A stretch of DNA of 40,211 nt from Thermoanaerobaculia bacterium (GCA_035632455.1 DASQGS010000181.1:1-40211), one strand, 5' to 3'. Counted from the stretch's first letter, positions 3,231 through 35,114 are shown. Program-made: numbers and translations. Notes: generated by a model from the letters alone, not told the origin.

Positions 3231-4982
3231 ATGCCTACAAATGCAGCACTTAATGACGTATCGACCATCATGAATTCCTTCGTATTCATGTTGCCGTCGA
3301 TGCAGCACACCATCCGCCCGGTGATGTTGAGCCCCGTCGACCCTGAGGTTCTTCCATTTCTCGCCGTTCTGATAGCCGTTCTGCTCGTGGTCATGGCCCG
3401 GCGCGAGCGTTTCGCACATCTCAGCGGAGCCCAGCGATTGCATGGCATGGCGCCCCTCTCGACCGGCGTGCCGGTTCTGGCGATCGGCGCCGGAGAGGCA
3501 TTCAGCGCACGTCCTGAGCGCGAACCAGAGATCCCTTCGCACGAGACCAGCGACGCGCTCGCCGATCTCGTCACCCTCTCCGGCGATTGGGTGTGGGAGT
3601 GCGATGCCGAGGGACGCTACACGTTCGCGGGAACGCAGATTCACGAGATCCTCGGCTATGCGCCGGAAGAGGTCATCGGAAAGACGGCGTGCGACCTTGC
3701 TCTGCCCGAGGAAACTCGGCGGATTCGAAGCCTCCTCCTTCCATTGCTCAGAAGCCCGCGATCCTTCGCCCGAATCGAAGTGACCGCCCTCCATCGCGAT
3801 GGCCGGCCGGTTCTGCTGGAAGTCAGCGGCATGCCATTGATCGGCTCGGGCGGTCAAGCGAACGGCTATCGCGGCCTGGTGCGCGACGTGACTGAGCTGG
3901 AGGCGCACAAGCGGGAACGACAACTCCTTGCGATGGCCATCGAGAACGCCGGCGACGTCGTCATAATCACCGACCGCGAGGGGAGGATCGAATACGTAAA
4001 TCCGGCTTTCGAGACCGTCACCGGCTATCGCCGCAAGGACATCGAGGGCGCGACGCCTCGGATTCTGAAAAGCGGCCGGCAACCGGCTGAGTATTACGAG
4101 AAGATGTGGAGCCGCCTTCTCGCCGGCGAGAACTGGAGCGGCCACTTCGCCAATCTGCGGCGCGACGGCAGTCCCTACTACGCCGATGCAACCGTGTCGC
4201 CGATACTCGATGAGCAGGGTGCGATCACCGGCTTCGTCGCAGTCCAACGCGACGTGACCGAGAAGATGTCCCTTCTCGACCGTCTGCACTCGGCGATGGA
4301 GATGGAGCGGTTCGGGAACCTGGTCAGCGGCGTGGCCCACGAGGTTCGCAATCCTTTAAATGCCATCCAGGCTGCGGTGGGCGCGCTCGAGCTCGAATTC
4401 GGCTCTGAGGCCGAGGCCGGACCGCTGTTCGGCATCGTGCGCTCGCAAGTCGGCCGGCTTGCGCGGCTCATGAGCGATCTGCTGGTCATCGGGAAACCGG
4501 TAGATCAGGCACTTCTTCAAATCAGACCGGTCGCCGAGGTGGTGTCGGAGGCGTTGGCCGTGTGGCGGGAAGCGCATCCCGACGTAAACGAGCGCCGTGT
4601 CCGCTTCACCGCAGGTAGCGGAGCGACCGTCAACGTTGACGTCGCACGCCTGCACCAGGTCGTCGTCAACCTGCTCGACAACGCTCTCCAGCACAGTGAT
4701 TCGGACAGCGAGATCGTCCTCGGTGTCGATGACATCCTGGACCGCTCGCGGATCTTTGTACGCGATGCCGGCTCCGCGGTGATCCCATCGCTCATCGCTC
4801 GGGTATTCGACCCTTTCTTCACCACTCGTCCCGGCGGGACCGGGCTCGGCCTGAGCCTCGTCAAGAGCATCGTCGAGCAGCATGGCGGGACCGTGTCGAT
4901 CCGCAACAACGAGCCACCACCCGGCTGCACCGTGGAGGTAGTTCTTCCGCCGGTGCCCGATAGCGAGAGGAGACGCGCATGA
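3231..4982 (+). CDS. PAS-domain sensor histidine kinase (one TM segment, tandem PAS, HisKA, HATPase_c)
   Basis: ORF 3132..4982. H-box SGVAHEVRNPLNAI. G-boxes DAGSAV and GTGLGLSLVKSIVEQHGG. Two PAS-like segments (WVWECDAEGRYTF..., IENAGDVVIITDREGRIEYVNPAFETVTGY). The start is ambiguous: GTG 3132, ATG 3231 or ATG 3270. Confidence 0.9.
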   Translation: MPTNAALNDVSTIMNSFVFMLPSMQHTIRPVMLSPVDPEVLPFLAVLIAVLLVVMARRERFAHLSGAQRLHGMAPLSTGVPVLAIGAGEAFSARPEREPEIPSHETSDALADLVTLSGDWVWECDAEGRYTFAGTQIHEILGYAPEEVIGKTACDLALPEETRRIRSLLLPLLRSPRSFARIEVTALHRDGRPVLLEVSGMPLIGSGGQANGYRGLVRDVTELEAHKRERQLLAMAIENAGDVVIITDREGRIEYVNPAFETVTGYRRKDIEGATPRILKSGRQPAEYYEKMWSRLLAGENWSGHFANLRRDGSPYYADATVSPILDEQGAITGFVAVQRDVTEKMSLLDRLHSAMEMERFGNLVSGVAHEVRNPLNAIQAAVGALELEFGSEAEAGPLFGIVRSQVGRLARLMSDLLVIGKPVDQALLQIRPVAEVVSEALAVWREAHPDVNERRVRFTAGSGATVNVDVARLHQVVVNLLDNALQHSDSDSEIVLGVDDILDRSRIFVRDAGSAVIPSLIARVFDPFFTTRPGGTGLGLSLVKSIVEQHGGTVSIRNNEPPPGCTVEVVLPPVPDSERRRA

Positions 4983-12050: not shown

Positions 12051-12916
12051 ATACCCTGGTCGCTGTGGCGACATTGACCGATCGCGAATTCGGGCAGATC
12101 CAGGAGCTCGTGTACCGCGAGGCGGGCATCTTCCTATCCAAAGAGAAGAAGGCTCTGGTTGTCGCGCGCCTGGGAAGACGGCTTCGCGAGCTGCAGATTC
12201 AATCCTTCGGCGAGTACTACAGTCGCGCCCATGAATCGAACGACGAGCGAAGGCGCTTGCTCGACGCCATCTGCACGAATGAGACGCACTTCTTTCGCGA
12301 GCCGCGCCAGTTCGAGTTCCTGGAGCGACAGATCATTCCGGCGTGGCGGCGCGAGGCATCCGCGGGGAGACGCCGGCGATGCGTGCGCGTGTGGAGCGCC
12401 GCTTGTTCGACCGGCGAGGAGCCGTTTTCGATCGCTATGCTTCTTCGTTACGCGCTCCCCTCGGATTGGGCGATCGAGCTGCTGGCCAGCGACCTCTCAA
12501 CCCAGGTGCTGGCGAGGGCGCAGGCAGCAGTCTGGCCAATCGCCAGGTCCGAGGAGATTCCTCCGGTACTGTTGAAGGCCTTCATGCTCAGAGGCGTCGA
12601 GGCTCACAGCGGGCTGATGAAGGCCTCATCCGAGCTCCGGTCGCTGGCGACGTTCCGTCACATCAATCTGAACGATGAGCGGTACGATGTCGGGCAATTC
12701 GATCTCGTGTTCTGCCGCAACGTGCTCATGTACTTCAGTGACGATTCCAGGACAAGAGTGATCCTGCGCTTGCTGAAACATCTCACTCCGTCGGGCTATC
12801 TCTTCCTCGGTCACGCCGAGTCGCTGAACCGCGTCACCGATCGGGTAAAGAACGTTGGTCCGACGGTCTACGCGCATGCCGATCAGGACGAGACTTTTCT
12901 CGGAGCGGCGGGGTGA
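12047..12916 (+). CDS. cheR: Chemotaxis protein methyltransferase CheR
   Basis: 289 aa: [19 protein letters not shown]...[13 protein letters not shown]...[18 protein letters not shown]...FCRNVLMYF. The TTG start overlaps the cheW stop; a GTG a few codons downstream is also possible. Confidence 0.93.
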
Positions 12917-13965
12917 AAGTTCTCGTCGTCGACGATTCCGCCGTGGTCAGGCAGATCGTGACCGCGATCCTGGCGGAGCAGCGCGACATCACGGTGCAGG
13001 TCGCTTCAGATCCGCTCATCGCCATGCAGAAGATGCAGCAGTCCCGTCCCGACGTCATTCTTCTCGATCTCGAAATGCCGCGGATGGATGGGCTGACCTT
13101 TCTTCGCAAGTTGATGAGCGAGGACCCGATCCCCGTGGTGGTCTGCTCAGCTCTGGCCGGCCGCGGCAGCGACGTGGCGGTCCAGGCGTTGGAAGAGGGC
13201 GCGGTCGATATCGTCACCAAGCCACGCCTTGGCGTGCGCGAGTTTCTCATCGAGACCTCGATCACGCTGACCGACACGCTGCGGGCTGCGGCGAGCGCCA
13301 AGCTGCGGTCTCGTCTCCGTCACTTGCCGCGCAAGCCGAAAGAGACTGCCGACGCTGTGCTCGCCGCCCAGCCACCGGCCGTGCGCTATACGACGGATAA
13401 GGTGGTGGCCATGGGCGCTTCCACCGGCGGCACCGAAGCGCTCAGCGCGATTATCGAAGCCCTTCCACCCGACGCGCCGGCGGTCGTCGTCGTGCAGCAC
13501 ATGCCGGAGGTCTTCACGGCCAGCTTCGCCCGGCGACTGAACGACATCAGCCGCGTCGAGGTCAAGGAGGCCGCCGACGGCGATCGCGCCGCTCCAGGAC
13601 ACGTGCTTATCGCGCCCGGCAACCGGCACTTGATCGTCCGTCGCAGCGGTGCACGCTACGTGGTCGAGCTTGCGGACGGCCCGCTGGTCTCGCGGCACCG
13701 CCCGAGCGTCGACGTACTCTTCCGCTCCGTCGCTCAGGCGGCAGGGCCCAACGCCATCGGCGTGATCCTCACCGGAATGGGGAGCGACGGCGCCGCCGGT
13801 CTGCTGGAGATGTTCGAAGCCGGCGCCGTGACCATCGCACAGAACGAGGCGACCTGCGTGGTCTTCGGCATGCCGAAGGAAGCGATCGCCCGCGGCGCCG
13901 TACACCACGTGCTCCCGCTCGGCAGTATTCCGGGAGCGCTCGTCCGAATGGCTACGGCGCAGTAG
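12913..13965 (+). CDS. cheB: Protein-glutamate methylesterase CheB (receiver plus CheB_methylest)
   Basis: 350 aa: [15 protein letters not shown]...[11 protein letters not shown]...[14 protein letters not shown]...VVVVQHMP...[13 protein letters not shown] overlap with the cheR stop. Confidence 0.95.
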
Positions 13966-13973
13966 ACGTCGGC

Positions 13974-15086
13974 TCACAGCCGCTTCCGCGCAAGAATCGA
14001 ACGATACAAATCCTCGAGCCGGCCGATGCGGAGCTCCTTCGAGAAGCTACGCCGTACGTGATCCATCGCACGCGCCGCGACGGCATTGCGGCGGTCCGGT
14101 CCGCCCATCACGTCGCGAATCGCGCCGGCGATCGCGCCGGAGTCCTGCGGCGCGATGAGCCAGCCTACTTCACGTGTCGAGACCAACTCGCGGTTGCCGC
14201 CGCAGTCGGTTGCGATGACCGGTTTGCGCATGGCCATGGCCTCGCGAATCGTTCCGGTCACACCCGTGCCGGCCCAGGAGGCATCGACGACGAGATCGCA
14301 GGCGGCAAGAACGCTGGGCATGTCGGTCCGGTACTCGACTGGCGAAACGCGATCTCCGATTCCCGACTCACGGGCAAAGCCGGTGACGTCCCCCTTCTCT
14401 CCGTCGTTCCTGCAGCCGACCAGCGCCAAGTGGATCTCGGGATGCGACGGCGCCACGGCGGCGATTGCCGCGATCAGCTCCTTCCACCCTTTCCAATCGC
14501 GGACGCCGACCTGGGCAACGAGGAAGCGGTCCTCGCCGATGCCTTTCTCGCGACGAAACGCTGAGGGGTCCCACTTCGTCGGATCAAACAATGCGACGTC
14601 GGTGCCCGCGTAGACGACTTCGACCTTATCTGAAGGCAGCCTGCCGCTGGTCACGATCACGTCCTTGATCTGCCGGCATACCGTGACGATGCGGTCGACG
14701 CGGTGCGTGCGATACTTGCCGCGATTCCAACGATCGAGCGGGAACGACACGCCGCGGTTGACGATAAACGCGCCAACTGGCTTCCCGAACGTGGCACTCA
14801 GCGCGAGAGCGTGGGCCACTCCCTTGTGGGCGTGGATCACATCGAAGCGCCGTTCGGCGATGAGCCGGCGGAGCGCGAAAATAGTCCCGAGGTCGAACGA
14901 GTTGCGAAACGGAAGTGCCTGGAAGTCAATCCCCGACTCGGCGGCCTTTGCCGCGAGAACGGGATCGGGACGGCTCGCGATCGCGACCTCGTGGCCCCGC
15001 TCGCGCAACCCCGCCGCGGCCTGGAACATCTGGTGGACCGACCCGGTGTTGAACTGGTTGAACTCGAGGGCCTGAAGGATTCTCAT
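13974..15086 (-). CDS. Glycosyltransferase, GT4-type (GT-B fold)
   Basis: 370 aa: MRILQALEFNQFNTGSVHQM...GHEV... and a C-terminal ...VVDASWAGTGVTGTIREAMAMRKPVIATDCGGNRELV, typical of Glycos_transf_1. Confidence 0.85.
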   Translation of the reverse strand: MRILQALEFNQFNTGSVHQMFQAAAGLRERGHEVAIASRPDPVLAAKAAESGIDFQALPFRNSFDLGTIFALRRLIAERRFDVIHAHKGVAHALALSATFGKPVGAFIVNRGVSFPLDRWNRGKYRTHRVDRIVTVCRQIKDVIVTSGRLPSDKVEVVYAGTDVALFDPTKWDPSAFRREKGIGEDRFLVAQVGVRDWKGWKELIAAIAAVAPSHPEIHLALVGCRNDGEKGDVTGFARESGIGDRVSPVEYRTDMPSVLAACDLVVDASWAGTGVTGTIREAMAMRKPVIATDCGGNRELVSTREVGWLIAPQDSGAIAGAIRDVMGGPDRRNAVAARAMDHVRRSFSKELRIGRLEDLYRSILARKRL

Positions 15087-15243: not shown

Positions 15244-15313
15244 TTTGCCACTCAACATTTATCATTCCCGACTGCGCAGTCTGGTTTTCACTCCGCGGAA
15301 AAGGAGTCCTCGC

Positions 15314-16153
15314 ATGCGACGTCTTCCTCTGCTTCTCTCCGCCATCCTCGCGCTGCTCGCTCCGCTCGTCCTCTCCGCGCAGGAGCATGAACATCCCGGC
15401 ACGCGCACAACCGTCAACACCTTCCATAAGGGCGCTGCGCCTCCGCCGACCATCTCCCTGCTTCGAGGCAAAGTCATCCAGTTCCCTTCTGCGATAGGCG
15501 GCAACGCGAGCGGATACCTCGCGCTCCCTGACTCGAAGACGCCCGCGCGCCACCCCGCGATCATCGTGATCCAGGAGTGGTGGGGAATGAACGACTGGAT
15601 CCTTCAACAGGCTGATCGCTTTTCGCGCGACGGCTACGTCGCTTTGGCTATCGACCTTTACCGCGGCAAGAGCACCACCGATCCGGCCACGGCTCACGAG
15701 CTGATGCGCGGTATGCCGGAGGATCGAGCCATGGCCGATCTGAAAGCCGCATTCAACCTTCTCGCTTCGCGCTCGGACGTCGATCCGGCGAAGATCGGTT
15801 CGATCGGCTGGTGCATGGGCGGTGGCTATTCGCTCGCGCTGGCGACGGTCGAGCCTCGCCTCGCGGCCTGCGTGATGAACTACGGGCGACTGGTCACGGA
15901 TCCGGCCACGATCGAGAAGATGCGTCCTCCGATCCTCGGCAACTTCGGCGCCGACGACAAAGGCATCCCGCCGGCCGACGTGAAGGCCTTCGATGCCGCG
16001 CTCAAGAAGGCGGGGAAATCGTCGGACATCAAGATCTACGACGGCGCAGGGCATGCGTTCATGAATCCTGCGAACACGGACGGATACCGCCCCGAGTCAG
16101 CCAAGGACGCCTGGAGACGGATTGATGCGTTCCTCGAGAAGAAACTGAAGTAA
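15314..16153 (+). CDS. Secreted dienelactone hydrolase family protein
   Basis: ATG 15314 follows AAGGAG. Signal peptide MRRLPLLLSAILALLAPLVLSAQ. Motifs IIVIQEWWGMNDW..., GSIGWCMGGGYSL (nucleophile elbow), GADDKGIP and GAGHAFMNP. Confidence 0.9.
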   Translation: MRRLPLLLSAILALLAPLVLSAQEHEHPGTRTTVNTFHKGAAPPPTISLLRGKVIQFPSAIGGNASGYLALPDSKTPARHPAIIVIQEWWGMNDWILQQADRFSRDGYVALAIDLYRGKSTTDPATAHELMRGMPEDRAMADLKAAFNLLASRSDVDPAKIGSIGWCMGGGYSLALATVEPRLAACVMNYGRLVTDPATIEKMRPPILGNFGADDKGIPPADVKAFDAALKKAGKSSDIKIYDGAGHAFMNPANTDGYRPESAKDAWRRIDAFLEKKLK

Positions 16154-16320
16154 GCTCCGGCGATCATTGACGCGGAGAGGTGCTCGCCGCCTCGGCCGTG
16201 CGTTGCGGCGCGCCGGGAGCGGATGATACGATGCAAGCTGTTGATTCCAAGTAATTTCGCGGACTCGTGCAAGGCCGGGAGGCAGGGTTGCCGACGGACA
16301 AGGCTCCTCCGAGGGACCAG

Positions 16321-16812
16321 ATGAAGGTGACCGACAAGCGGATCTTCACCGCTGAGGGCGAGATCCGGGAGGAGTTCCGGGATGAATTCCGTGGTGATAG
16401 CACCACGGCCGATCCGTCCCCGACGCTGGCGCCACCTGAGCCTGCGCCCGAAAAGCCGGCGGAACCGCCACCGAGGCCCGCGGAGCCTCCGCCCCAACCG
16501 AAGAAGGAGAAGCCCGCTGCCGCCGGTGAGCGCGGCCGCACCGTGACCGATCGCGCGCAAAACCCGGGGACGCCATTCACGAACTTTCTCGAGTCGCTCA
16601 TCGTGCAGGCGTACATGAGCCTCGGCATGCTGCGCAACCCTTATCAGCCGCAAGCGAAGGTCGATCCGCCCGCGGCCCGGCAGATGATCGAGATTCTCAC
16701 GCTTCTGCACGACAAGACCGCCGGCAACCTGACCGATGAAGAAGAGGATTTTCTGACGACGCATCTGGGAGAATTGAAGCTCGCGTTCGTCCAAAGAACG
16801 AAGTCTCTGTGA
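16321..16812 (+). CDS. DUF1844-like protein with a proline-rich linker
   Basis: Start at ATG 16321 (MKVTDKRIF), internal to ORF 16267..16812. The C-terminal part FTNFLESLIVQAYMSLGMLRNP...ARQMIEILTLLHDKTAGNLTDEEEDFLTTHLGELKLAFV matches my memory of the DUF1844 pattern. Confidence 0.75.
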   Translation: MKVTDKRIFTAEGEIREEFRDEFRGDSTTADPSPTLAPPEPAPEKPAEPPPRPAEPPPQPKKEKPAAAGERGRTVTDRAQNPGTPFTNFLESLIVQAYMSLGMLRNPYQPQAKVDPPAARQMIEILTLLHDKTAGNLTDEEEDFLTTHLGELKLAFVQRTKSL

Positions 16813-18653
16813 TGACACCTCGCCGCGCCGCATGGTCTCTGCTCCTCCTACTCGCGTGCGCAGCCATGCCCGCGATGGCGGAGCAGACTGCGCCTCGCGA
16901 CATCTTCCCGCAGGCGATGGCCTCGGCTGACGCCGGCGACGTCCAGGGCGCGATCAAGAAGACCAATGAGCTGACCGAGACCGGCAAGATCTACGGTCTC
17001 AAGACCTATCCGATCTACGCTGAGGCCGTCGCCTCGCTCGCCAGCGCGGCGGCGAGAGACGGCAAGGCGAAGGTCGCGGAGTGGGCGGCGAAAGCAGCCG
17101 AGCAACTCGATCCCACCTCGGCCGGCGTGGCCTTTGCCGCCGCGGATCGCGCGGCCGATCGGGGAGAGTGGGGTCACGCGCTCCCCGCCGTCGCTCGCGG
17201 CTACCTCAAGACCTTCTCGACTTACCGCTCGCGGGTCCTGGCGCGAAGCGATCTCGATGTGGTTCTTTGTATGGCCATCGGCCTGATCGGCATCGCCCTT
17301 GCCATCACCCTTTTCTTCCGCCACGGCCGGTCGGCATCCCACGACTTTCGCGAGATCATCGGGGCGCGCGTGCACGGCGGGTCCGTGACCATCCTGGCCA
17401 TCGCCGTGCTTTTCCTCCCAGTGTTCCTCTGGCTCGGCCCGGTCTGGCTGGCGTTCTACTGGTTCGCGATTTTCTTCGGCTACGCCAACGCGAGCGAGCG
17501 TAGCCTCATCGTGATCACCTCGCTGGCGCTGGCGATCGCGCCTCTCGCGCTCGATCGCGTCGCGACGACGATCGCGAATGTCAACAGTCCGGTCGTCGTG
17601 GCGGCGGCGGCGAACAGCGAACAGAGCTACCAGCCCGACGCGTTGCGCAGCCTTCAGGAGCTCGCCGCCCAAGTCCCCGACGACGCCACGATCCAGCTCC
17701 TTCTCGGCAACCTTCAACTGCACGAAGGCAACGATCGCCTCGCTGGGGTCCACTACCGCCGCTCCGCTGAATTGAAGGACTCAGCCGGGGCTCACGTGAA
17801 TCTCGGCAATCTGCATTTCGCGAACAACGACTTTGCCGCGGCGATCACGGAATACGAGAAGGCCCAGAAGCTCGATCCGAAGCTCGCGATCGCCTTCTAC
17901 AACAACTCGGTCGCCAGCGGCGAGACCTACAAATTCGACGAGCAGGGACAGAAGCTCGATCAAGCCAAGAAAATCGACAGCGCGGCGATCGAGAGGTTGT
18001 CGCAGAGCCAGGGGCCGCTCAAAGTCGCGACGTACAACCCGCCCATTCGCGAAGCATGGCAGGTGGCCACGTCGATCTCCCGTCGCGGGACGGCGCGGAG
18101 CCTCTTCGGCAACTACGCGTTCTTCGATCCGCTCACCAGCGCATTGAACCCCATCACGATCGGCGGTCTGTTGTCTCTCGCGCTGGCCATGGTGATCTGG
18201 CTCATCTCACGCCGGAACGGCTTCGCCGGCGCCTGCATCAAGTGCGGCAGGACATTCTGCTACCGATGCAAGTCGTCGTCCGAGAGCGCCACGTATTGCA
18301 CGCAGTGCATCCACATCTACCTCAAGCGCGACGGTGTGTCGCTGCAGACGAAGCGGCAGAAGCTGGACGAGGTTCACGGGTATCAGAGCGCGCTCCTGCG
18401 CCGCAACCGCATCCTGGCGACATTCATGCCGGGCTCGGCGCAGATCCTCGAAGGGAACGCCGTGGCCGGCTACCTGGCGATGCTCCTGTTCCTCTTCTTC
18501 GTATCGTTCGCGATTCTGATCGGACGCCTGGCGCCGGTGCTCGCCGACGGCCATGCCGCCAGGCTGATCGCCCGCATCGTGTCGATCGTCATCGCCGTCA
18601 TCATCTGGTGCGTGTTTACTGTGCCGGTTTACCGGCGGAAAGTCGCGGTCTAG
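16812..18653 (+). CDS. Polytopic membrane protein with TPR repeats and a cytoplasmic double CxxC zinc ribbon
   Basis: The ATG shares a base with the upstream TGA. It has a signal-like N-terminus, about 7 hydrophobic segments, TPR-like LGNLQLHEGNDRLAGVHYRRSAEL / LGNLHFANNDFAAAITEYEKAQKLDP, and CIKCGRTFCYRCKSSSESATYCTQC. Confidence 0.8.
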   Translation: MTPRRAAWSLLLLLACAAMPAMAEQTAPRDIFPQAMASADAGDVQGAIKKTNELTETGKIYGLKTYPIYAEAVASLASAAARDGKAKVAEWAAKAAEQLDPTSAGVAFAAADRAADRGEWGHALPAVARGYLKTFSTYRSRVLARSDLDVVLCMAIGLIGIALAITLFFRHGRSASHDFREIIGARVHGGSVTILAIAVLFLPVFLWLGPVWLAFYWFAIFFGYANASERSLIVITSLALAIAPLALDRVATTIANVNSPVVVAAAANSEQSYQPDALRSLQELAAQVPDDATIQLLLGNLQLHEGNDRLAGVHYRRSAELKDSAGAHVNLGNLHFANNDFAAAITEYEKAQKLDPKLAIAFYNNSVASGETYKFDEQGQKLDQAKKIDSAAIERLSQSQGPLKVATYNPPIREAWQVATSISRRGTARSLFGNYAFFDPLTSALNPITIGGLLSLALAMVIWLISRRNGFAGACIKCGRTFCYRCKSSSESATYCTQCIHIYLKRDGVSLQTKRQKLDEVHGYQSALLRRNRILATFMPGSAQILEGNAVAGYLAMLLFLFFVSFAILIGRLAPVLADGHAARLIARIVSIVIAVIIWCVFTVPVYRRKVAV

Positions 18654-18659
18654 TCGCTC

Positions 18660-19955
18660 ATGGCACTCGAAGGAACGCTGCGCGATTTCAGCCTCGCGGA
18701 CATCTTCCAGCTCATCGGGCTGCAGCGGAAGACCGGCGCGCTGACGCTGCGCGGGAAGGACGACACCGTGACGGTGACTTTCCTCGACGGCAAGGTCGTC
18801 GGCGCCGACTCGCTGAACCGCAGACTCGACAACCGCCTCGGCAACGTGCTGATCCGGAACGGGACGCTCACCCAGGATCAGCTCAACCGCGCTCTCGAGA
18901 TCCAGCGCGAGACTTTGCAGCGCCTCGGCTTCATCCTCATCCACTACGGCATCATCTCCGCCGAATCGCTGAAGGCCGCGATCCAGCTTCAGATCCTCCA
19001 GGTCGTCTACCGCCTGTTCCGTTGGAAGGACGGCGACTATCACTTCTCGCAGGAGACCACCATCGAGTACGACCGCGACAACGTCGTGCCGATCAGCGCG
19101 GAGTCGATCCTGATGGAAGGCGCAAGGATGATTGACGAGTGGCCGATCATCGAGAAGCGCATCCGCTCGTACGACATGCTCTTCCGCAAGAAGCTGACCG
19201 ACCAGGAGATCGTGGTGGTCGGCGCGGAGGAGGCCGACGAGATCGACTTCGAGGACTCGCCGTCGTCACGCCGCAAGAAGCCGTTCGCCACCGACAGGAT
19301 CCGGATCTCGCGGGAAGAGAAGCAGGTCTACGACCTCGTCGATGGCACCGAGACCGTCGCCGACATCGTGGAGTCCTCGAGGCTGTCGGAGTTCGACACG
19401 AACAAGGCCCTCTACGAGCTGCTGACCCGCGATCTCATCGAGGAGGTACGCCACGCCGCCGGGCCGCCCGGCAGCGAGGGAACGCCGCTCGACGAGATCG
19501 CCGTCGCCGAGACGCCGGTGCCGCTGCCGCTCGTGGTCGCCCTCGCCGTCGTGGCCCTGATCTCGCTCGTCACGTCGTTCAAGAATCCGCTCAACGGCTT
19601 CCGTCCGTTCGGGCGTACGACTTCCTGCGTGACCGAGATTCGGAAGGCTATCTCGATGCAGCGGATTCAACGCGTTGTCGATGCCATTGAGAAGTACAGC
19701 TTGGTGAACGCGCACCTTCCGAACCGCGTGCAGGAGCTGGCTCCGGACTACGTTGCGCCGTCGATGCTGATCGATCCATGGGGCAATGCGTACAACTACA
19801 ACCACCATCGCCCGGAGGTCTTCTACGTGATCGGCTTCGCCGCCGACGGTCGTGCCGACACCGATCTCCTGCTCTCTCACGCCATCGACACAGCCCCACT
19901 CCTTGCGCCTGCCAGCACGAAGCCCGCGACGGGCGGGATACAGCTTCTGGATTGA
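18660..19955 (+). CDS. DUF4388 domain protein fused through one TM helix to a GspG/pseudopilin-like C-terminal domain
   Basis: N-terminus LEGTLRDFSLADIFQLIGLQRKTGALTLRGKDDTVTVTFLDGKVVGA (DUF4388 pattern). TM helix VPLPLVVALAVVALISLVTSF. C-terminus ...IEKYSLVNAHLPNRVQELAPDYV...LIDPWGNAYNYN...YVIGFAADGRADTDLL, resembling the type II secretion GspG globular domain (DPWG.pY.Y ... S.G.DG). Confidence 0.8.
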   Translation: MALEGTLRDFSLADIFQLIGLQRKTGALTLRGKDDTVTVTFLDGKVVGADSLNRRLDNRLGNVLIRNGTLTQDQLNRALEIQRETLQRLGFILIHYGIISAESLKAAIQLQILQVVYRLFRWKDGDYHFSQETTIEYDRDNVVPISAESILMEGARMIDEWPIIEKRIRSYDMLFRKKLTDQEIVVVGAEEADEIDFEDSPSSRRKKPFATDRIRISREEKQVYDLVDGTETVADIVESSRLSEFDTNKALYELLTRDLIEEVRHAAGPPGSEGTPLDEIAVAETPVPLPLVVALAVVALISLVTSFKNPLNGFRPFGRTTSCVTEIRKAISMQRIQRVVDAIEKYSLVNAHLPNRVQELAPDYVAPSMLIDPWGNAYNYNHHRPEVFYVIGFAADGRADTDLLLSHAIDTAPLLAPASTKPATGGIQLLD

Positions 19956-19982
19956 ACGAAGCGCGCGTTACACTTCTCCCAC

Positions 19983-20855
19983 ATGCGACTCAAGTTGCTC
20001 TACAACCCGGCGGCTGGCCGCGGGCGGGCGCGGAAGTATATCGGCGAAGCGGAGACCTGTCTGTTGTCGATGGGAGCGGCAGTTGATGTCGAGGCGAGCA
20101 ACAGCCCGGCGCATCTGACCGCACTCGCTGCTCAGGCCTCGCGGGCCGGATACGATCGCGTCGTGGTTTGTGGCGGAGATGGGTCGCTGAATCTCGCCGT
20201 GCGCGAGCTCGATCTTCAGCAAGGGACTCTTGCACTTCTGCCGCTCGGATCGGGCGACGATTTCGCTCACGTCCTCGGGATTCCGCAGCGGCTCGACCGT
20301 GCGTGCGATCTGATCGTGAAGGGGAAGCCGCGCGAGGTGGACGTGGCCCTGGCCAACGGTATTCGCTACCTCGGCGTGGCCGGCCTCGGTTTCGACTCCG
20401 AGGTCGCCGCCTATGCCAACGAAAACGCCGGCATCCTGCGGGGATCGCACATCTACCTCTACGCCATCCTGCGCATCCTTCCGCGTTTTCTGCCGCATCG
20501 GGTGAGGCTCCGGCTGGCCGAAGGCACGCGAGAGGAGCACATCATGTTCGCGGTCGTCGGGAACTCGAGGCAATATGGCGGCGGAATTCGGATTACCCCT
20601 CGGGCGGTGATCGACGATCGCATACTCGACCTCTGCATCGTTCACCGCACGAGCCGCGCGCAGTTGCTCAAGACTCTCCCGCTGGCATACACCGGCATGC
20701 ACGTCAACAGCCCGTTCGTCGAGACCGGCCGCGGAGTCGAGTTTCATTTCGAGAGCGACGCGCCGCTCGAGGTTTACGCGGACGGCGAGCGCCTGACGCG
20801 TACGCCCGTCTCGTTCACGCTCGCCGAGGAAAAGCTGCGCATCATCGCGCCATAG
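19983..20855 (+). CDS. Diacylglycerol-kinase-family lipid kinase (YegS/DAGK_cat-like)
   Basis: 290 aa: LLYNPAAGRGRA...YDRVVVCGGDGSLNLAVREL...LALLPLGSGDDFAHVLGIP. Confidence 0.9.
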   Translation: MRLKLLYNPAAGRGRARKYIGEAETCLLSMGAAVDVEASNSPAHLTALAAQASRAGYDRVVVCGGDGSLNLAVRELDLQQGTLALLPLGSGDDFAHVLGIPQRLDRACDLIVKGKPREVDVALANGIRYLGVAGLGFDSEVAAYANENAGILRGSHIYLYAILRILPRFLPHRVRLRLAEGTREEHIMFAVVGNSRQYGGGIRITPRAVIDDRILDLCIVHRTSRAQLLKTLPLAYTGMHVNSPFVETGRGVEFHFESDAPLEVYADGERLTRTPVSFTLAEEKLRIIAP

Positions 20856-20871: not shown

Positions 20872-20897
20872 GTCGCGGGGCCTCCTTGCCCCGCGAC
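20872..20897 (+). terminator. GC-rich hairpin 17 nt after the lipid-kinase stop (no T-tract)
   Basis: GTCGCGGGGC (20872-20881), loop CTCCTT, GCCCCGCGAC (20888-20897): a perfect 10-bp stem. Confidence 0.45.
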
Positions 20898-20921
20898 CCT
20901 ACTCGCGCAGATGTGACCCAC

Positions 20922-20960
20922 CGTCATCCTGACCCGCGCAGACAGCGTAGGATCTCCTTG
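20922..20960. repeat. REP-like unit, family GTCATCCTGA...GGATCTCC
   Basis: CGTCATCCTGACCCGCGCAGACAGCGTAGGATCTCCTTG aligns with the reverse complement of 32698-32736 (GCGTCATCCTGAGCCGCGTAGACGGCGAAGGATCTCCTC) and with 32622-32678. Confidence 0.7.
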
Positions 20961-20988
20961 GAAAGATCGCAATTATCGCGAGTCCCCT

Positions 20989-21013
20989 CCGCGGGGCGCG
21001 GGACGCCCCGCGG
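20989..21013. repeat. Second perfect GC hairpin in the kinase-htrA spacer
   Basis: CCGCGGGGCG (20989-20998), loop CGGGA, CGCCCCGCGG (21004-21013). It shares the CGCGGGGC core with the hairpin at 20872-20897. Confidence 0.6.
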
Positions 21014-21051
21014 TTGCGGCCGGGACGGCCGCGCTCCTTTAGAATGTGCGT

Positions 21052-22422
21052 ATGAACAAGCTCCGCACCTTCGTACTGCTCTTCGCGCTCACGATCGGCT
21101 GCAAGCCGATGGCCGAATCGCAGACCATCTCGGGTCAGCCGAGACAGGAACATGCGCAGATCCCGCCGACGGTGAGCGCGGTTCGCCGCACGCCGGTGGT
21201 GGTGGTTGCCCACGACATTCTTCCGTGCGTCGTCAACATTCAGACCGAGGCCACGATCCGGCGGCGAGAAGTCGACCCCTTCTTCGACCCGTTCAGCATC
21301 TTCGGAGGCCGCGACCGCGTGTATCAGTCGCAATCGCTGGGCTCGGGATTCGTCTGGTCCTCCGACGGGATCGTCGTCACCAACAATCACGTGGTGGAAG
21401 GTGCGTCGCGGATCACGGTCAACTTCAATGACGGTTCGCAGCTTGCCGCGAAGCTGATCGGCGTCGATCCTGACAGCGATCTGGCCGTGTTGCGCGTCGA
21501 TTCCAGAAAACTGTCGGCCGCGCCGATCGGCACGTCGTCCGACCTGATGATCGGCGAGACAGTCATCGCCATCGGCAACCCGTTCGGCTTGAGCGGCTCG
21601 GTGACCACGGGCGTGGTCTCTGCTTTAGGCCGGTCCGTGCCGTCGAAGGAGGCGGGGCGGACCTTCACGGATTTCATCCAAACCGACGCTTCGATCAATC
21701 CCGGCAATTCCGGCGGGCCCCTCGTCAACATCGAAGGGCGCGTCATCGGCATCAACGTCGCGATCTACGCGCAAGCGCAGAACATCGGCTTCGCCATCCC
21801 TGTCGACCGGGCGAAGAAAGTGATTCAGGATCTGCTCCGCTACGGCGAGGTCCACAGCGCCTGGATCGGGGCGGTCACGGCGACGCTGACGCCGGAGGAG
21901 GCGAAGCGCATCGGCGCGCATGCGCAGAAGGGCGCGCTCGTGGCGCGCGTGTTCGCAGGCTCGCCTGCGCAGGCCGCGGGTCTGCGCGCCGGAGATGTGA
22001 TCGTGGCCGTCAACGGCAAGGGCGTCGATTCGCGCGAAGCCTTCTCCACGCTCACGGCCACTGCATCGATCGGACAGGCCGTCGAGGTGACGTTCATGCG
22101 CGAGGGTGGCAGCTCCCGCACTTCCGTCCGTCCCGGCGAGCCGCCGGCGAACCTCGGGCTGCGGATCCTCGAAGACGTGGCCGGCCTGCGTGTCAGCGAT
22201 GAGGGGAGGAACGTCGTCATCCAGAGCGTGCTCCGCGGATCTCGCAGTGAAAACATCGGCCTCGCCCCGGGCGACGTCATCGTCGGCATCAACGGCTCGG
22301 AGGTCCACTCGGTCAAGGATCTGAACAACGAGCTGAGCAAAGCCGCGGAACGCTCATCGATCGTGCTGTCAGTCGCGCGCGACCGGTACATCTACAACCT
22401 GACGTTCCCGATGGGCGTGTAA
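21052..22422 (+). CDS. htrA: HtrA/DegP-family periplasmic serine protease with two PDZ domains, lipoprotein-type signal
   Basis: ORF 21046..22422. ATG 21052 gives MNKLRTFVLLFALTIGC (lipobox). Catalytic triad contexts are VTNNHVV, DSDLAVL and GNSGGPLVN, followed by two PDZ-like segments. Confidence 0.95.
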   Translation: MNKLRTFVLLFALTIGCKPMAESQTISGQPRQEHAQIPPTVSAVRRTPVVVVAHDILPCVVNIQTEATIRRREVDPFFDPFSIFGGRDRVYQSQSLGSGFVWSSDGIVVTNNHVVEGASRITVNFNDGSQLAAKLIGVDPDSDLAVLRVDSRKLSAAPIGTSSDLMIGETVIAIGNPFGLSGSVTTGVVSALGRSVPSKEAGRTFTDFIQTDASINPGNSGGPLVNIEGRVIGINVAIYAQAQNIGFAIPVDRAKKVIQDLLRYGEVHSAWIGAVTATLTPEEAKRIGAHAQKGALVARVFAGSPAQAAGLRAGDVIVAVNGKGVDSREAFSTLTATASIGQAVEVTFMREGGSSRTSVRPGEPPANLGLRILEDVAGLRVSDEGRNVVIQSVLRGSRSENIGLAPGDVIVGINGSEVHSVKDLNNELSKAAERSSIVLSVARDRYIYNLTFPMGV

Positions 22423-33827: not shown

Positions 33828-35114
33828 CTATGCCGATCGCTGTGCCGCAGGCGCGATCACGCGGTTGCGGCCTTCGCGCTTGGCCTGGTACAGGCGCTCG
33901 TCGGCGCGGCCGATGAGCTCCTGCGGCGCGGCGCCGTCTTCCGGAAAGACCGCGACGCCGATGCTCACCGTGACGCCGCGGCCGCCGGCGGGAGGCTGGA
34001 GTGCTTCGACGTTTGCGCGGATTCGCTCGGCCATGGCAACGAGCCCAGCGAGATCGATCTGCGGCGCGATGACCACGAACTCCTCGCCGCCGTAACGCGC
34101 CGGAAAATCGACCGCGCGCAGAGTGTCGCTGATCGCTCGTGAGACGCGCTGCAAGGCCTCGTTCCCCGCGGGATGTCCGAGCTCATCGTTGTAGGCCTTG
34201 AACTTGTCGAGATCGAGGACCAGAACGCCGAATCGCTCGGGATAGCGGCCTGCGCGCTCGATCTCTTCATCGAGGCGCTCGCGGAACGCGCGGAAATTCG
34301 GCAGCCCGGTCAGCTCGTCCGTGCGGGCGTGCGCCGCCAGGGCGGCATGCGACGCTGTGAGTGCGTCGGCCATGTGGTTGAACGCCTCGGCGAGCCGGGC
34401 GATCTCGCGATCGCCCGCAACCGGCGCCCGCGCGCCGAGATCGCCCGCCGCGATGCGGCCGGACGCTGCCGAGAGGTCCTCGAGCGGCCGCACCACTCGG
34501 GCGACGGTGAGGCGGACGACGGCGAAGCTGCAGATCGCGACGATCCAGGCGATCGACAGACCACTCCACATCATCGAGCGCGTGTCGCGCTCCAGCTCGG
34601 GCAACTGCCGGGCGATGGCTTGCTTCCGCGAATCGATGACTTCCTGCGCCGCCCGGTTCACGTCGGAGGAGATCTGAGCCATTTCGGCGAGCGATTGGCC
34701 GCGCGCCGCGGGAGATGCCGCGGGCCAATCGACAACGGCATCGGTGACACTCGCTCCGAACGCCTTCACCTTCGCTCGCAGGATCCCGAGCGGAAGCGTG
34801 TCGAGGGCATCGTTCTGCAGGAGCTGCGAAACCGCGCGGTAGCGCTCCACAGCACGCGGCGGAATCGCGCCGCTCGCGGCCTCCGACTCGAACCGCGATC
34901 GGAATGCGTTCTGCGCGCGAATCAGCTCCTCGAGCGACGCGATGGCCCGAGCCTCGACGCCAATCAGATGGCTCCACCGTTCCTGCGATGCTTTGGCCTG
35001 CCAACTCAACCCGAACGTGATGGCGAAGAGGGCGAGCGCGAACACCCAAGTCAACAGGATCACGCGCGACCGAAGCCGCATCCGGCGATCGACTCGGTCG
35101 TATTGCCGGGTCAT
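33828..35114 (-). CDS. Membrane-bound diguanylate cyclase (periplasmic sensor region, HAMP, GGDEF)
   Basis: 428 aa with an N-terminal TM, a second TM plus HAMP (VRPLEDLSAASGRIAAGDLGARAP), then DELTGLPNFRAF...VLDLDKFKAYNDELGHPAGN...RYGGEEFVVIAP (GGEEF active site). Confidence 0.9.
   Translation of the reverse strand: MTRQYDRVDRRMRLRSRVILLTWVFALALFAITFGLSWQAKASQERWSHLIGVEARAIASLEELIRAQNAFRSRFESEAASGAIPPRAVERYRAVSQLLQNDALDTLPLGILRAKVKAFGASVTDAVVDWPAASPAARGQSLAEMAQISSDVNRAAQEVIDSRKQAIARQLPELERDTRSMMWSGLSIAWIVAICSFAVVRLTVARVVRPLEDLSAASGRIAAGDLGARAPVAGDREIARLAEAFNHMADALTASHAALAAHARTDELTGLPNFRAFRERLDEEIERAGRYPERFGVLVLDLDKFKAYNDELGHPAGNEALQRVSRAISDTLRAVDFPARYGGEEFVVIAPQIDLAGLVAMAERIRANVEALQPPAGGRGVTVSIGVAVFPEDGAAPQELIGRADERLYQAKREGRNRVIAPAAQRSA

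Follow-up and report, generated by a model that had tools for sequence, protein, structure and literature searches.

LapD of Pseudomonas fluorescens is an inner-membrane receptor with HAMP and degenerate GGDEF-EAL domains, in which binding of c-di-GMP in the cytoplasm alters the periplasmic domain; its periplasmic partner is LapG. In the Pel polysaccharide system, a membrane c-di-GMP receptor, PelD, and an inner-membrane TPR protein, PelE, are found next to a GT4 enzyme, PelF. PatA-type regulators (PixE, PixG, and LsiR of Synechocystis and PatA of Anabaena) have a REC domain, receive phosphorylation as their input, and have the PATAN domain (PF14332) as their output domain, which binds PilB and PilC and is located at the membrane. 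Binding of PATAN domains to PilB and PilC was described in Synechocystis (bioRxiv 10.1101/2021.06.11.447907), and DnaK1 binds both the PATAN regulator PixG and PilB (PMC13710413). The MshEN motif for c-di-GMP binding has been defined experimentally as a tandem of 24-residue units, RLGxx(L/V/I)(L/V/I)xxG(L/V/I)(L/V/I)xxxxLxxxLxxQ, separated by a 5-residue spacer (Wang et al. 2016, PMC5013675).

Here we compare with these systems a gene cluster from a Thermoanaerobaculia bacterium, carried on a stretch of DNA of 40,211 nucleotides (GCA_035632455.1; hereafter the window). A preliminary description of the window had proposed that four genes, here called g1 to g4, form one module of uncharacterised envelope proteins with a role in trans-envelope signalling or lipid remodelling.

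A conserved three-gene operon

The region from 16321 to 20855 contains four open reading frames that are co-oriented on the + strand (Table 1). The g1/g2 junction reads GTGATG, and the start of g2 overlaps the g1 stop codon (TGA, 16810–16812). The gap between g2 and g3 is 6 nt and that between g3 and g4 is 27 nt. Downstream of g4, the two hairpins share a CGCGGGGC core and are without T tracts, and no terminator-like site was called at these hairpins (20872–21013). The arrangement given in the preliminary description, with its gene order, junctions, hairpins, and htrA, is thus borne out by the sequence.

Table 1. Features of the locus, with positions counted from the first nucleotide of the window.
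Feature	Position	Strand	Details
g1, DUF1844 protein	16321-16812	+	163 aa from ATG; upstream GTG at 16267 gives 181 aa
g2, polytopic inner-membrane protein	16812-18653	+	613 aa from ATG; 614 aa from GTG at 16809
g2, periplasmic TPR domain	17589-18005	+	residues about 260-398; between TM4 and TM5
g2, cytoplasmic zinc ribbon	18234-18308	+	C475-x2-C478-G ... C483-x2-C486 ... C496-x2-C499
g3, PATAN-TM-GspG-like protein	18660-19955	+	431 aa
g3, tandem MshEN c-di-GMP-binding motif (predicted)	18834-18992	+	residues 59-111; two 24-residue units
g3, TM helix	19518-19574	+	residues 287-305; Kyte-Doolittle 2.6; AF2 helix 289-307
g3, periplasmic GspG-like (pseudopilin head) domain	19611-19895	+	contains DPWGNAYNY motif
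g4, lipid kinase, YegS/Rv2252/BmrU family	19983-20855	+	290 aa
Two perfect 10-bp GC hairpins	20872-20897 and 20989-21013	.	between g4 and htrA; inverted-repeat search and sequence reading
htrA	21046-22422		downstream of hairpins

We surveyed synteny in 151 Acidobacteriota genomes, of which 76 are carriers. The g3 gene lies directly 3′ of g2 in 73 of these 76; of the remaining three, one is a contig break and the other two are not listed. Directly 5′ of g2, g1 is found in 57 of the 76 carriers, and a stop-start overlap of 4 nt between g1 and g2 occurs in loci with GC contents of 34–67%. In a second, small phylum the g2-g3 pair is present in 13 of 13 genomes and directly adjacent in 11, and g1 is never beside the pair. 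The same adjacency is seen in two loci fetched through distant homologues of g2, one from the second phylum (L093, genome G151) and one on a metagenome contig (L094). The conserved unit is therefore the three-gene operon g1-g2-g3, not a set of four, and its ancient core is the g2-g3 pair. Profile searches, which the preliminary description had named as a way to refute the module, place none of g1, g2, and g3 in a characterised pathway. In soil Acidobacteria the operon is old, conserved, and so far unstudied.

The fourth gene behaves differently. Its product matches DAGK_cat (100 bits) and YegS_C (115 bits) in Pfam and TIGR00147 at subfamily level (152 bits, cut-off 118.65), and no equivalog model reached its own cut-off. 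The identification of g4 as a lipid kinase of the DAG-kinase family thus holds, and the protein, with no TM segment, is soluble. Among 80 Thermoanaerobaculia loci, the g4 orthologue is on the opposite strand and convergent to g3 in 48–50, on the same strand in none, and absent from 19 despite room for it. It is also convergent to g3 in four genomes of the same family, on another contig in a genome of the same order (G107), and unlinked from g1-g2-g3 in the rest of the phylum, beyond the family. Because it is opposite or missing in these loci, never co-oriented, and unlinked beyond the family, g4 is a neighbour and not a member of the unit, and a local inversion has co-oriented it here. Conserved synteny of all four genes was the preliminary description's own test of the module, and g4 does not show it. 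What stands of the module is g1-g2-g3 as a conserved, tightly coupled, and uncharacterised set that spans both sides of the inner membrane; the proposal of a lipid-remodelling machine loses its basis with the kinase.

Domain organization of the three proteins

The g1 protein matches DUF1844 (Pfam PF08899) with 69.8 bits against a cut-off of 27. An N-terminal KVxDKRxF motif is followed by a disordered, proline-rich linker and, at the C-terminus, the helical DUF1844 domain; domain and linker agree with the earlier reading of this gene. Both the N-terminal motif and a KTxGNLTxEE core are kept in distant orthologues. A hydropathy scan found no TM segment in g1, and the protein is predicted to be cytoplasmic. 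DUF1844 is not specific to this operon. It is single-copy in 125 of the 151 Acidobacteriota genomes, many of them without g2-g3, and in all nine genomes without g2-g3 that were checked it is directly 5′ of dnaK. For g1, a small cytoplasmic protein, the dnaK locus is the primary genomic partner, and in Acidobacteriota the gene is translationally coupled to g2.

The AF2 model of g2 has a mean pLDDT of 90.1 and a pTM of 0.84. From hydropathy and the positive-inside rule, we read the protein as a signal peptide, a periplasmic helical N-domain, TM1–4, a periplasmic TPR domain, TM5, a cytoplasmic zinc ribbon, and two C-terminal TM helices. The hydropathy scan gave the signal peptide and six TM segments, and residues 209–224 were read as the seventh. 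A cytoplasmic loop within the four-TM block carries H177-D178-xx-E181, and the loop from 467 to 544 has 14 K+R versus 4 D+E. The TPR region spans approximately residues 270–400, where TPR_11, TPR_1, TPR_2, and TPR_8 of Pfam are above cut-off at 327–365 and the AF2 model has helix pairs over 260–398. Foldseek returned only TPR matches for g2, and neither the membrane core nor the zinc ribbon has a Pfam match. Among 38 homologues, C475, C478, C496, C499, and P540 are invariant, so that four cysteines of the ribbon are invariant, and the other two are conserved in at least 90%. The length, polytopic nature, TPR repeats, and zinc ribbon reported for this protein were all confirmed, but the ribbon has three CxxC pairs rather than the two described.

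The g3 protein comprises a PATAN domain with an MshEN-type insertion and a winged-helix-like domain, both cytoplasmic, followed by a TM helix and a periplasmic GspG-like globular domain (mean AF2 pLDDT 76.6). It matches PF14332 (PATAN, also DUF4388) in two stretches with 115.2 bits (cut-off 25); a search of the genome splits this match at 18669–18917 and 18918–19142, and the helical insertion divides the domain. No match to a REC (CheY-like receiver) domain was found in g3, and the C-terminus consists of the TM helix and periplasmic domain. Similarity of the head to GspG is marginal and the assignment is weakly supported. The head scored 20.3 bits (E 6e-4) against T2SSG (PF08334), just under the cut-off of 21. 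This family is precomputed on many g3 orthologues. A profile of the head domain had GspG/EpsG as its top five PDB matches at marginal E values of 1e-3 to 7e-3, and the AF2 model has a long helix (323–350) and then three strands (379–408). No pseudopilin was among the Foldseek top 50 for the whole chain, and the head is missing in short orthologues and hence not universal. Of the DUF4388-TM-pseudopilin fusion that had been proposed for g3, the first two parts are well founded and the third is marginal. Ahead of the TM helix, where the sequence reads ...AETPVPLPLVVALAVV..., there is no class III signal peptide or prepilin-peptidase site (G|F/M-T-L-x-E). With 286 cytoplasmic residues before the TM helix and no prepilin leader, g3 cannot be cleaved or polymerised.

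The insertion in the PATAN domain carries a tandem MshEN motif. Unit 1 (residues 59–82) is RLGNVLIRNGTLTQDQLNRALEIQ, which has one deviation, a T for the hydrophobic residue after G. Unit 2 (residues 88–111) is RLGFILIHYGIISAESLKAAIQLQ, and the spacer RETLQ (residues 83–87) has the canonical five residues. The score against NF053729 (NCBIfam) is 49.6 bits with a curated cut-off of 38. Sequence matches in the PDB are to the N-domains of PilF (9.5e-11), PilB (8e-5), and MshE (5htl, 2.3e-4), and with Foldseek the AF2 model superposes on 8pdk_B, the c-di-GMP-bound GSPII-B domain of PilF, with an rmsd of 0.8 Å over 52 residues (probability 0.98). The unit also matches NfrB-type glycosyltransferases and EpsG. 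The view that g1, g2, and g3 all lack an assigned function therefore needs correction for g3. We regard the motif as the decisive feature of g3; it had been overlooked in the preliminary description.

Of 53 acidobacterial orthologues that could be read, 39 retain both R/K-x-G heads of the motif and 50 retain one or both. Degenerate heads occur in 13 of 13 second-phylum orthologues and about a quarter of those from Acidobacteriota, so c-di-GMP sensing cannot be a universal function of the g2-g3 pair. For the g3 protein of the window, motif and model suggest that the PATAN insertion most likely binds c-di-GMP. The host genome encodes 19 GGDEF domains and at least four PilB/GspE-type ATPases, and can therefore use such a signal.

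A putative inner-membrane c-di-GMP receptor complex

We propose that g1, g2, and g3 form a c-di-GMP receptor complex in the inner membrane, with type IV pilus-like machinery or DnaK as its possible target, and we put the probability of this at roughly one half. From translational coupling and co-occurrence, we infer that the three proteins interact physically. In this complex g3 would be a single-pass sensor that presents a c-di-GMP-binding insertion in the cytoplasm and an unprocessable GspG-type head in the periplasm. The g2 protein would be its obligatory membrane partner, with two helical/TPR domains in the periplasm and a zinc ribbon of four to six cysteines in the cytoplasm. Binding of c-di-GMP made by the many GGDEF enzymes of the host would alter the contacts that the PATAN domain, the zinc ribbon of g2, and g1 make with partners in the cytoplasm. 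Via the complex of g2 and g3 in the membrane, this change may also reach the TPR and pilin-like domains on the periplasmic side, an 'inside-out' mode of signalling like that of LapD.

The likeliest targets would be a type IV pilus or T2SS-like machine, through PilB and PilC, and/or DnaK. No pilus, T2SS, or polysaccharide gene is beside the operon in any locus examined, so gene context does not indicate the target. PilM occurs in 144 of the 151 genomes whether or not they have the pair, which makes its co-occurrence uninformative. In at least 22 genomes, from 15 families, g3 is directly followed by dnaK, but as dnaK is a housekeeping gene this adjacency may be neutral. A more specific form of the proposal, which we consider tentative and rather improbable, makes g2-g3 an inside-out c-di-GMP transducer in pilus assembly, where it would act under second-messenger control as a brake, primer, or docking subunit; DUF1844 would be a DnaK-linked adaptor that has so far gone unrecognised. 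The uncleavable, unpolymerisable head and the TPR domains would then face a type IV pilus or T2SS-like machine from the periplasm, and the cytoplasmic partners of the PATAN domain would be PilB, PilC, and DnaK. If this is true, the g2-g3 pilus regulator would be a new kind of pilus-machine component that is widespread in Acidobacteriota.

Other readings of the operon were considered. The insertion could be a structural PATAN 'alpha-clip' that does not bind c-di-GMP, which would make g2-g3 a nucleotide-independent membrane scaffold. Makarova et al. 2006, as cited in PMC12448109, describe an alpha-helical insertion in PATAN domains, and all 13 second-phylum orthologues and L094 keep the insertion without R-x-G heads; one head is gone from about a quarter of the acidobacterial orthologues. 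We nevertheless doubt this reading, since both 24-residue units and the spacer of g3 match the experimentally defined motif with a score above the curated cut-off, the model superposes closely on a c-di-GMP-bound structure, and selection on the two heads is suggested by their joint retention in 39 of 53 orthologues. A role in heat shock or proteostasis, with DUF1844 as a DnaK-associated factor, g2-g3 as a sensor in the membrane or a client-delivery platform that cooperates with DnaK, Hsp20, and HtrA, and no link to pili, is in our view unlikely. It fits the position of dnaK 3′ of g3, the position of DUF1844 5′ of dnaK where g2-g3 is missing, and the binding of a PATAN regulator by DnaK1 in Synechococcus (PMC13710413). 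It also fits one locus (L001, genome G093) in which dnaK, hsp20, and a sigma-70-family gene follow g3, parts of this set in L006 and L008, and the htrA gene that comes after the locus in the window and in 47 of 80 close relatives. Proximity to housekeeping genes is weak evidence, however, and dnaK is elsewhere in the window's own family (in G070, dnaK is on contig C13 and the operon on C10). In the second phylum the pair has neither DUF1844 nor the main dnaK copy as a neighbour, and no chaperone-type domain was detected in g1, g2, or g3.

The scaffolding of a c-di-GMP-activated synthase of exopolysaccharide or another envelope polymer, which would use the divergent GT4 enzyme by analogy with PelD/PelE and PelF or with MshEN-bearing NfrB, seems to us quite improbable. 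The Pel system offers a precedent for c-di-GMP receptors with a TPR-containing partner in the inner membrane, the MshEN unit has the glycosyltransferase and EpsG matches noted above, and 69 of 80 close relatives have a GT4 gene upstream on the other strand (13974–15086 in the window, divergent). But GT4 is not adjacent in other classes, where only L009 and L010 have it, several kb off, and the loci examined contain no polysaccharide export, polymerase, or flippase genes. The original proposal that all four genes make up one trans-envelope signalling or lipid-remodelling machine has very little likelihood left. In the window no terminator-like site separates g3 from the co-oriented g4, and g4 orthologues are near g3 in about 50 of 69 family loci with enough flanking sequence; yet the kinase has no TM segment, and the synteny data on strand, absence, and linkage described above already largely refute this machine.

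Comparison with known systems

The proposed receptor complex shares its logic with LapD, where a cytoplasmic c-di-GMP signal also reaches a periplasmic domain. The domains are unrelated, with HAMP and degenerate GGDEF-EAL in LapD versus PATAN and MshEN in g3, and LapG is the known periplasmic partner of LapD. The arrangement of g2-g3 is similar to that of PelD/PelE, but there is no sequence relationship, the locus is without PelG- or PelA-C-like genes, and linkage to GT4 is limited to one class.

The g3 head shares with the major T2SS pseudopilin GspG (PulG, EpsG, XcpT) the A..Y....G.YP..L and DPWG..Y.Y motifs and a long helix followed by beta strands. By contrast with GspG, g3 lacks the class III signal peptide, the prepilin-peptidase site, and Glu5, and the sequence match is marginal. 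With PatA-type regulators g3 has in common a PATAN domain with a helical insertion. It differs from them in having its own TM anchor and a periplasmic domain in place of REC, in always being paired with g2, and in its predicted input, which is c-di-GMP rather than phosphorylation. The tandem 24-residue units, the 5-residue spacer, the PDB matches, and the superposition on PilF make the insertion of g3 like the MshEN domains of MshE, PilB, PilF, and NfrB. In those proteins MshEN is N-terminal on a secretion ATPase or a glycosyltransferase, whereas in g3 the unit is inserted in the PATAN domain of a membrane-anchored, non-enzymatic protein.

Conservation of the operon

The four genes considered here encode a DUF1844 protein (g1), a polytopic membrane protein with TPR repeats and a zinc ribbon (g2), a PATAN (DUF4388) protein with a transmembrane (TM) helix and a GspG-like part (g3), and a lipid kinase (g4). 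Their source is an acidobacterial metagenome-assembled genome that is 82% complete and comprises 4.2 Mb in 540 contigs. The preliminary description had treated them as one tightly coupled module followed by hairpins and htrA. The layout itself was confirmed: the ORF coordinates place four forward-strand genes at 16321-20855, the g1 stop and g2 start overlap within GTGATG, and reading of the sequence gave gaps of 6 nt between g2 and g3 and 27 nt between g3 and g4. The hairpins and then htrA were located 3' of g4 by an inverted-repeat listing, the sequence and a profile match.

Features of the locus and of related loci discussed in the text
Feature	Position	Strand	Remark
GT4 glycosyltransferase gene	13974-15086	-	5' of g1
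Dienelactone hydrolase gene	15245-16153	+	between the GT4 gene and g1
g1	16321-16812	+	ORF
g2	16812-18653	+	ORF; alternative start at GTG 16809
g3	18660-19955	+	ORF
g4	19983-20855	+	ORF; DAGK_cat and YegS_C
Two hairpins	20872-20897 and 20989-21013		perfect 10-bp GC stems, no T tract
htrA	21046-22422		3' of the two hairpins
DUF1844-dnaK without g2-g3	G002:C1:3793149-3795652		likewise in genomes G094, G039, G082, G142, G130, G069, G021 and G011
dnaK, hsp20 and a 283-aa sigma-70-family gene (possibly RpoH-like) after g1-g2-g3	L001:10201-13554		locus from genome G093

The start of g1 is ambiguous: initiation at GTG 16267 would lengthen the protein by 18 residues (stretch 16267-16320). Within this possible extension, the peptide TDKAPPRDQ has a loose similarity to the extra N-terminal residues of an orthologue from the same family. 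The hairpins at 20872-21013 have a CGCGGGGC core in common, oppositely oriented in the two, and are closer to dispersed REP-like elements than to a simple intrinsic terminator.

Each protein was searched against 150 further species genomes spread over Acidobacteriota, where g2-type proteins were counted if near full length or, in one divergent family, if the C-terminal half was present. Such a protein occurs in at least 76 of the 150 genomes. This number is a lower bound because a divergent g2 lies between g1 and g3 in a lineage scored as g2-negative (locus L010). Of the 76 carriers, 73 have a g3 homologue directly 3' of g2 and on its strand; of the other three, one g2 is at a contig break and two had no adjacent g3 among the matches listed. 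As for g1, 57 of the carriers have it directly 5' of g2 and 3 have it at another position; in the remaining 16 it was not detected at E≤1e-3. Six of the seven loci from distant lineages (34-67% GC) that could be read at this point show a 4-nt g1-g2 overlap, and the g2-g3 junction in distant-lineage loci is usually a few bases or an overlap, with a maximum of about 110 nt. Among 1.8 billion representative proteins, the g2 family forms 159 clusters (50% identity, E≤1e-30). When divergent g2 homologues were used as a search profile, most matches were generic TPR proteins, and a single divergent clade was recovered.

The pair also occurs in a second phylum, which was reached by way of a divergent g2 homologue and is represented by a small group of 13 species genomes. 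All 13 carry g2, with g3 directly 3' in 11, and each has a single DUF1844 gene that in no case adjoins the pair. Since the pair occurs outside Acidobacteriota without a neighbouring DUF1844 gene, g2-g3 is the ancient core, to which g1 is attached in Acidobacteriota.

The fourth gene does not belong to this unit. Its product passes the TIGR00147 cut-off for the YegS/Rv2252/BmrU family of lipid kinases. In four same-family genomes the g4 orthologue adjoins g3 in convergent orientation; in a genome of the same order it is on another contig, and elsewhere in the 150-genome survey it is unlinked. The usual order in Thermoanaerobaculia is GT4 (-), sometimes dienelactone hydrolase (+), g1, g2 and g3 (+), g4 (-) and htrA (+). 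We examined 80 loci, all from close Thermoanaerobaculia relatives, by tblastn. Within this set, 48 loci have g4 next to g3 on the opposite strand, two more opposite-strand copies either overlap the g3 end by a base or lie 4.9 kb away, and g4 is absent from 19 loci having room for it. It is co-oriented with g3 in none of the 80. Among the genomes compared, a co-oriented g4 was seen only in the window's genome (19956-21045). Because g4 is convergent in 48-50 of the 80 relatives and co-oriented in none, its orientation here is read as an inversion; this implies either an assembly error or a recent local event spanning about 0.9-1.1 kb. An inverted-repeat search of the window found no repeats flanking g4 that could explain an inversion. 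Close spacing of 27 nt in a single genome can reflect a recent inversion and not an operon. Of the proposed four-gene unit, then, g1-g2-g3 is conserved across Acidobacteriota but g4 is not part of it, and with the kinase outside the conserved unit the suggestion of lipid remodelling has no support. A separate candidate for module membership, the upstream che operon (about 6.4-14 kb), was rejected: its last gene (12913-13965), the sole che query, was found in 0 of 80 related loci.

Linkage to dnaK

Across these 151 genomes, we set the location of dnaK against the locations of g1 and g3. It is directly 3' of g3 on the same strand, in the order DUF1844-g2-g3-dnaK, in at least 22 genomes; these represent 15 families, of which four belong to the window's class. 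Nine genomes lacking g2-g3 have a single DUF1844 gene directly 5' of dnaK. Apart from the fuller heat-shock set in the table, partial sets follow g1-g2-g3 at two loci (L006, with dnaK and the sigma gene, and L008). Genomes of the second phylum have 4-7 Hsp70 matches each at E≤1e-100. Given both the DUF1844-g2-g3-dnaK and the DUF1844-dnaK orders, the ancestral frame in Acidobacteriota looks like DUF1844-[g2-g3]-dnaK, and the window's family has lost dnaK here, with g4 and htrA in its place. DUF1844 may be a DnaK-linked factor; the adjacency of dnaK to the three genes may also be neutral. The linkage is consistent with a recent experimental hint that DnaK acts with PATAN regulators at the pilus motor. 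In that 2026 study, DnaK1 was reported to bind both PixG, which is a PATAN regulator, and PilB, the ATPase of the pilus (PMC13710413).

Domain architecture of the three proteins

The domains first assigned from sequence were DUF1844 in g1, TPR in g2, DUF4388 in g3 and a DAG-kinase-family enzyme in g4, and all were recovered; the CxxC pairs in g2, however, number three and not two. Residues 1-190 of g3 form a PATAN domain that is interrupted by a helical insertion (Pfam, genome search and AF2). A near-perfect tandem MshEN unit makes up this insertion, consisting of RLGNVLIRNGTLTQDQLNRALEIQ, the 5-residue spacer RETLQ and RLGFILIHYGIISAESLKAAIQLQ. The MshEN motif was defined from the MshE-c-di-GMP structure (Wang et al., PMC5013675). 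The g3 unit scores 49.6 bits against NCBIfam NF053729 (curated cut-off 38) and matches the solved PilF, PilB and MshE N-domains in a search of PDB sequences. In the AF2 model (mean pLDDT 76.6), the insertion and the c-di-GMP-bound form of PilF GSPII-B align over 52 residues with an rmsd of 0.8 Å. One preprint reports some DUF4388 proteins annotated with a GspE_N domain (bioRxiv 10.1101/2021.06.11.447907).

The PATAN domain is followed by a winged-helix-like domain at about 210-265 (Foldseek match 2yu3) and by a single TM helix at 287-305 (hydropathy); Pfam gave nothing significant for the linker domain. The periplasmic domain has a long helix, three strands and the GspG-like motifs A..Y....P..L and DPWGNAYNY. 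Its Pfam T2SSG match is sub-threshold, and the five best PDB matches to its profile are GspG/EpsG, at only E 1e-3 to 7e-3. Many g3 orthologues have a precomputed PF08334 match, and the domain is missing from some short orthologues. Whole-chain Foldseek matched the MshEN and winged-helix parts and returned no pseudopilin. No prepilin leader was found in g3, therefore this part is predicted to be a pilin-like head that is neither processed nor polymerised.

The AF2 model of g2 has a pLDDT of 90.1 and a pTM of 0.84. From hydropathy and charge, g2 has a signal peptide, a periplasmic helical domain (25-142), four TM helices with a cytoplasmic loop containing near-invariant H177 and conserved D178 and E181, a periplasmic TPR domain (about 251-447), a fifth TM helix, a strongly basic cytoplasmic segment enclosing the zinc ribbon, and two C-terminal TM helices. 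Five residues, Cys475, 478, 496 and 499 and Pro540, do not vary among 38 homologues. Foldseek with g2 found TPR proteins only, and Pfam gave nothing significant for the membrane core, zinc ribbon or C-terminal TM helices. In g1, a conserved KVxDKRxF motif at the N-terminus is followed by a Pro-rich, disordered linker and a helical DUF1844 core for which no PDB relative was found. In Deinococcus, DUF1844 has been described as a family of low variability with a link to dtd (PMC9425974). A PADLOC search gave no match to a defence system.

A predicted c-di-GMP receptor complex

The best-supported reading is that g1-g2-g3 encodes a predicted inner-membrane c-di-GMP receptor complex. In this model, g3 would bind c-di-GMP via its MshEN insertion, with g2 as its membrane partner. 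The PATAN domain, the zinc ribbon and g1 would relay the signal to partners in the cytoplasm, and the TPR and pilin-like domains may receive it across the membrane as well.

Pilus-type machinery is the favoured target, because MshEN units are a typical component of pilus and secretion ATPases, g3 has a GspG-like head, and the window's genome, though incomplete, encodes 19 GGDEF domains, of which one lies in the window at 33861-34328 (-), along with several ATPases resembling PilB/GspE and PilT. It is favoured too because PATAN domains bind PilB and PilC (bioRxiv 10.1101/2021.06.11.447907). Against such a target, no pilus gene adjoins the operon in the loci examined. PilM, a type IV pilus marker, is present in 144 of 151 genomes with or without the pair and is so nearly universal that its co-occurrence with the pair is uninformative. 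An MglB-like gene is present in the window's genome on another contig.

Three other readings were weighed against the receptor complex. Both R/K-x-G heads of the MshEN unit are kept in 39 of 53 readable acidobacterial g3 orthologues and at least one in 50 of 53; they are degenerate in all 13 second-phylum orthologues. With these counts on either side, we consider it rather unlikely that the pair is a nucleotide-independent scaffold. A role of the module in proteostasis, the reading to which the dnaK and heat-shock neighbours are relevant, is less probable still, and this adjacency is the one that may be neutral. Least probable is that the pair is a polysaccharide scaffold working with the divergent GT4 enzyme. 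In favour of that reading, 69 of 80 close relatives have the GT4 gene 5' of g1 and on the other strand. The dienelactone hydrolase gene lies between them, as in the window, in 28.

Acidobacteriota are abundant in soil and possess many c-di-GMP enzymes. For this phylum the operon supplies a conserved candidate c-di-GMP receptor, and if the cytoplasmic domain of g3 does bind c-di-GMP, an annotation gap would become a defined signalling node.

As a comparison with known systems, g3 is by sequence and structure a PATAN protein containing an MshEN unit. About ten PATAN (DUF4388) proteins are encoded in the window's genome (for example C161:4104-4403, C119:100-561 and 3623-4087, and on contigs C180, C391 and C43), an expansion similar to one reported for Myxococcus; a literature search on MXAN_4738/4739 and sgnC found nothing relevant. 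Unlike PatA-type regulators, g3 has no REC domain and is for that reason not of this type, and unlike pseudopilins it has no prepilin leader and is thus not one of them. No paper was found that describes this architecture, in which a PATAN domain enclosing an MshEN unit is combined with a TM helix and a pilin-like head and is always accompanied by a zinc-ribbon/TPR membrane partner; it is a new combination of known parts and not a new category.
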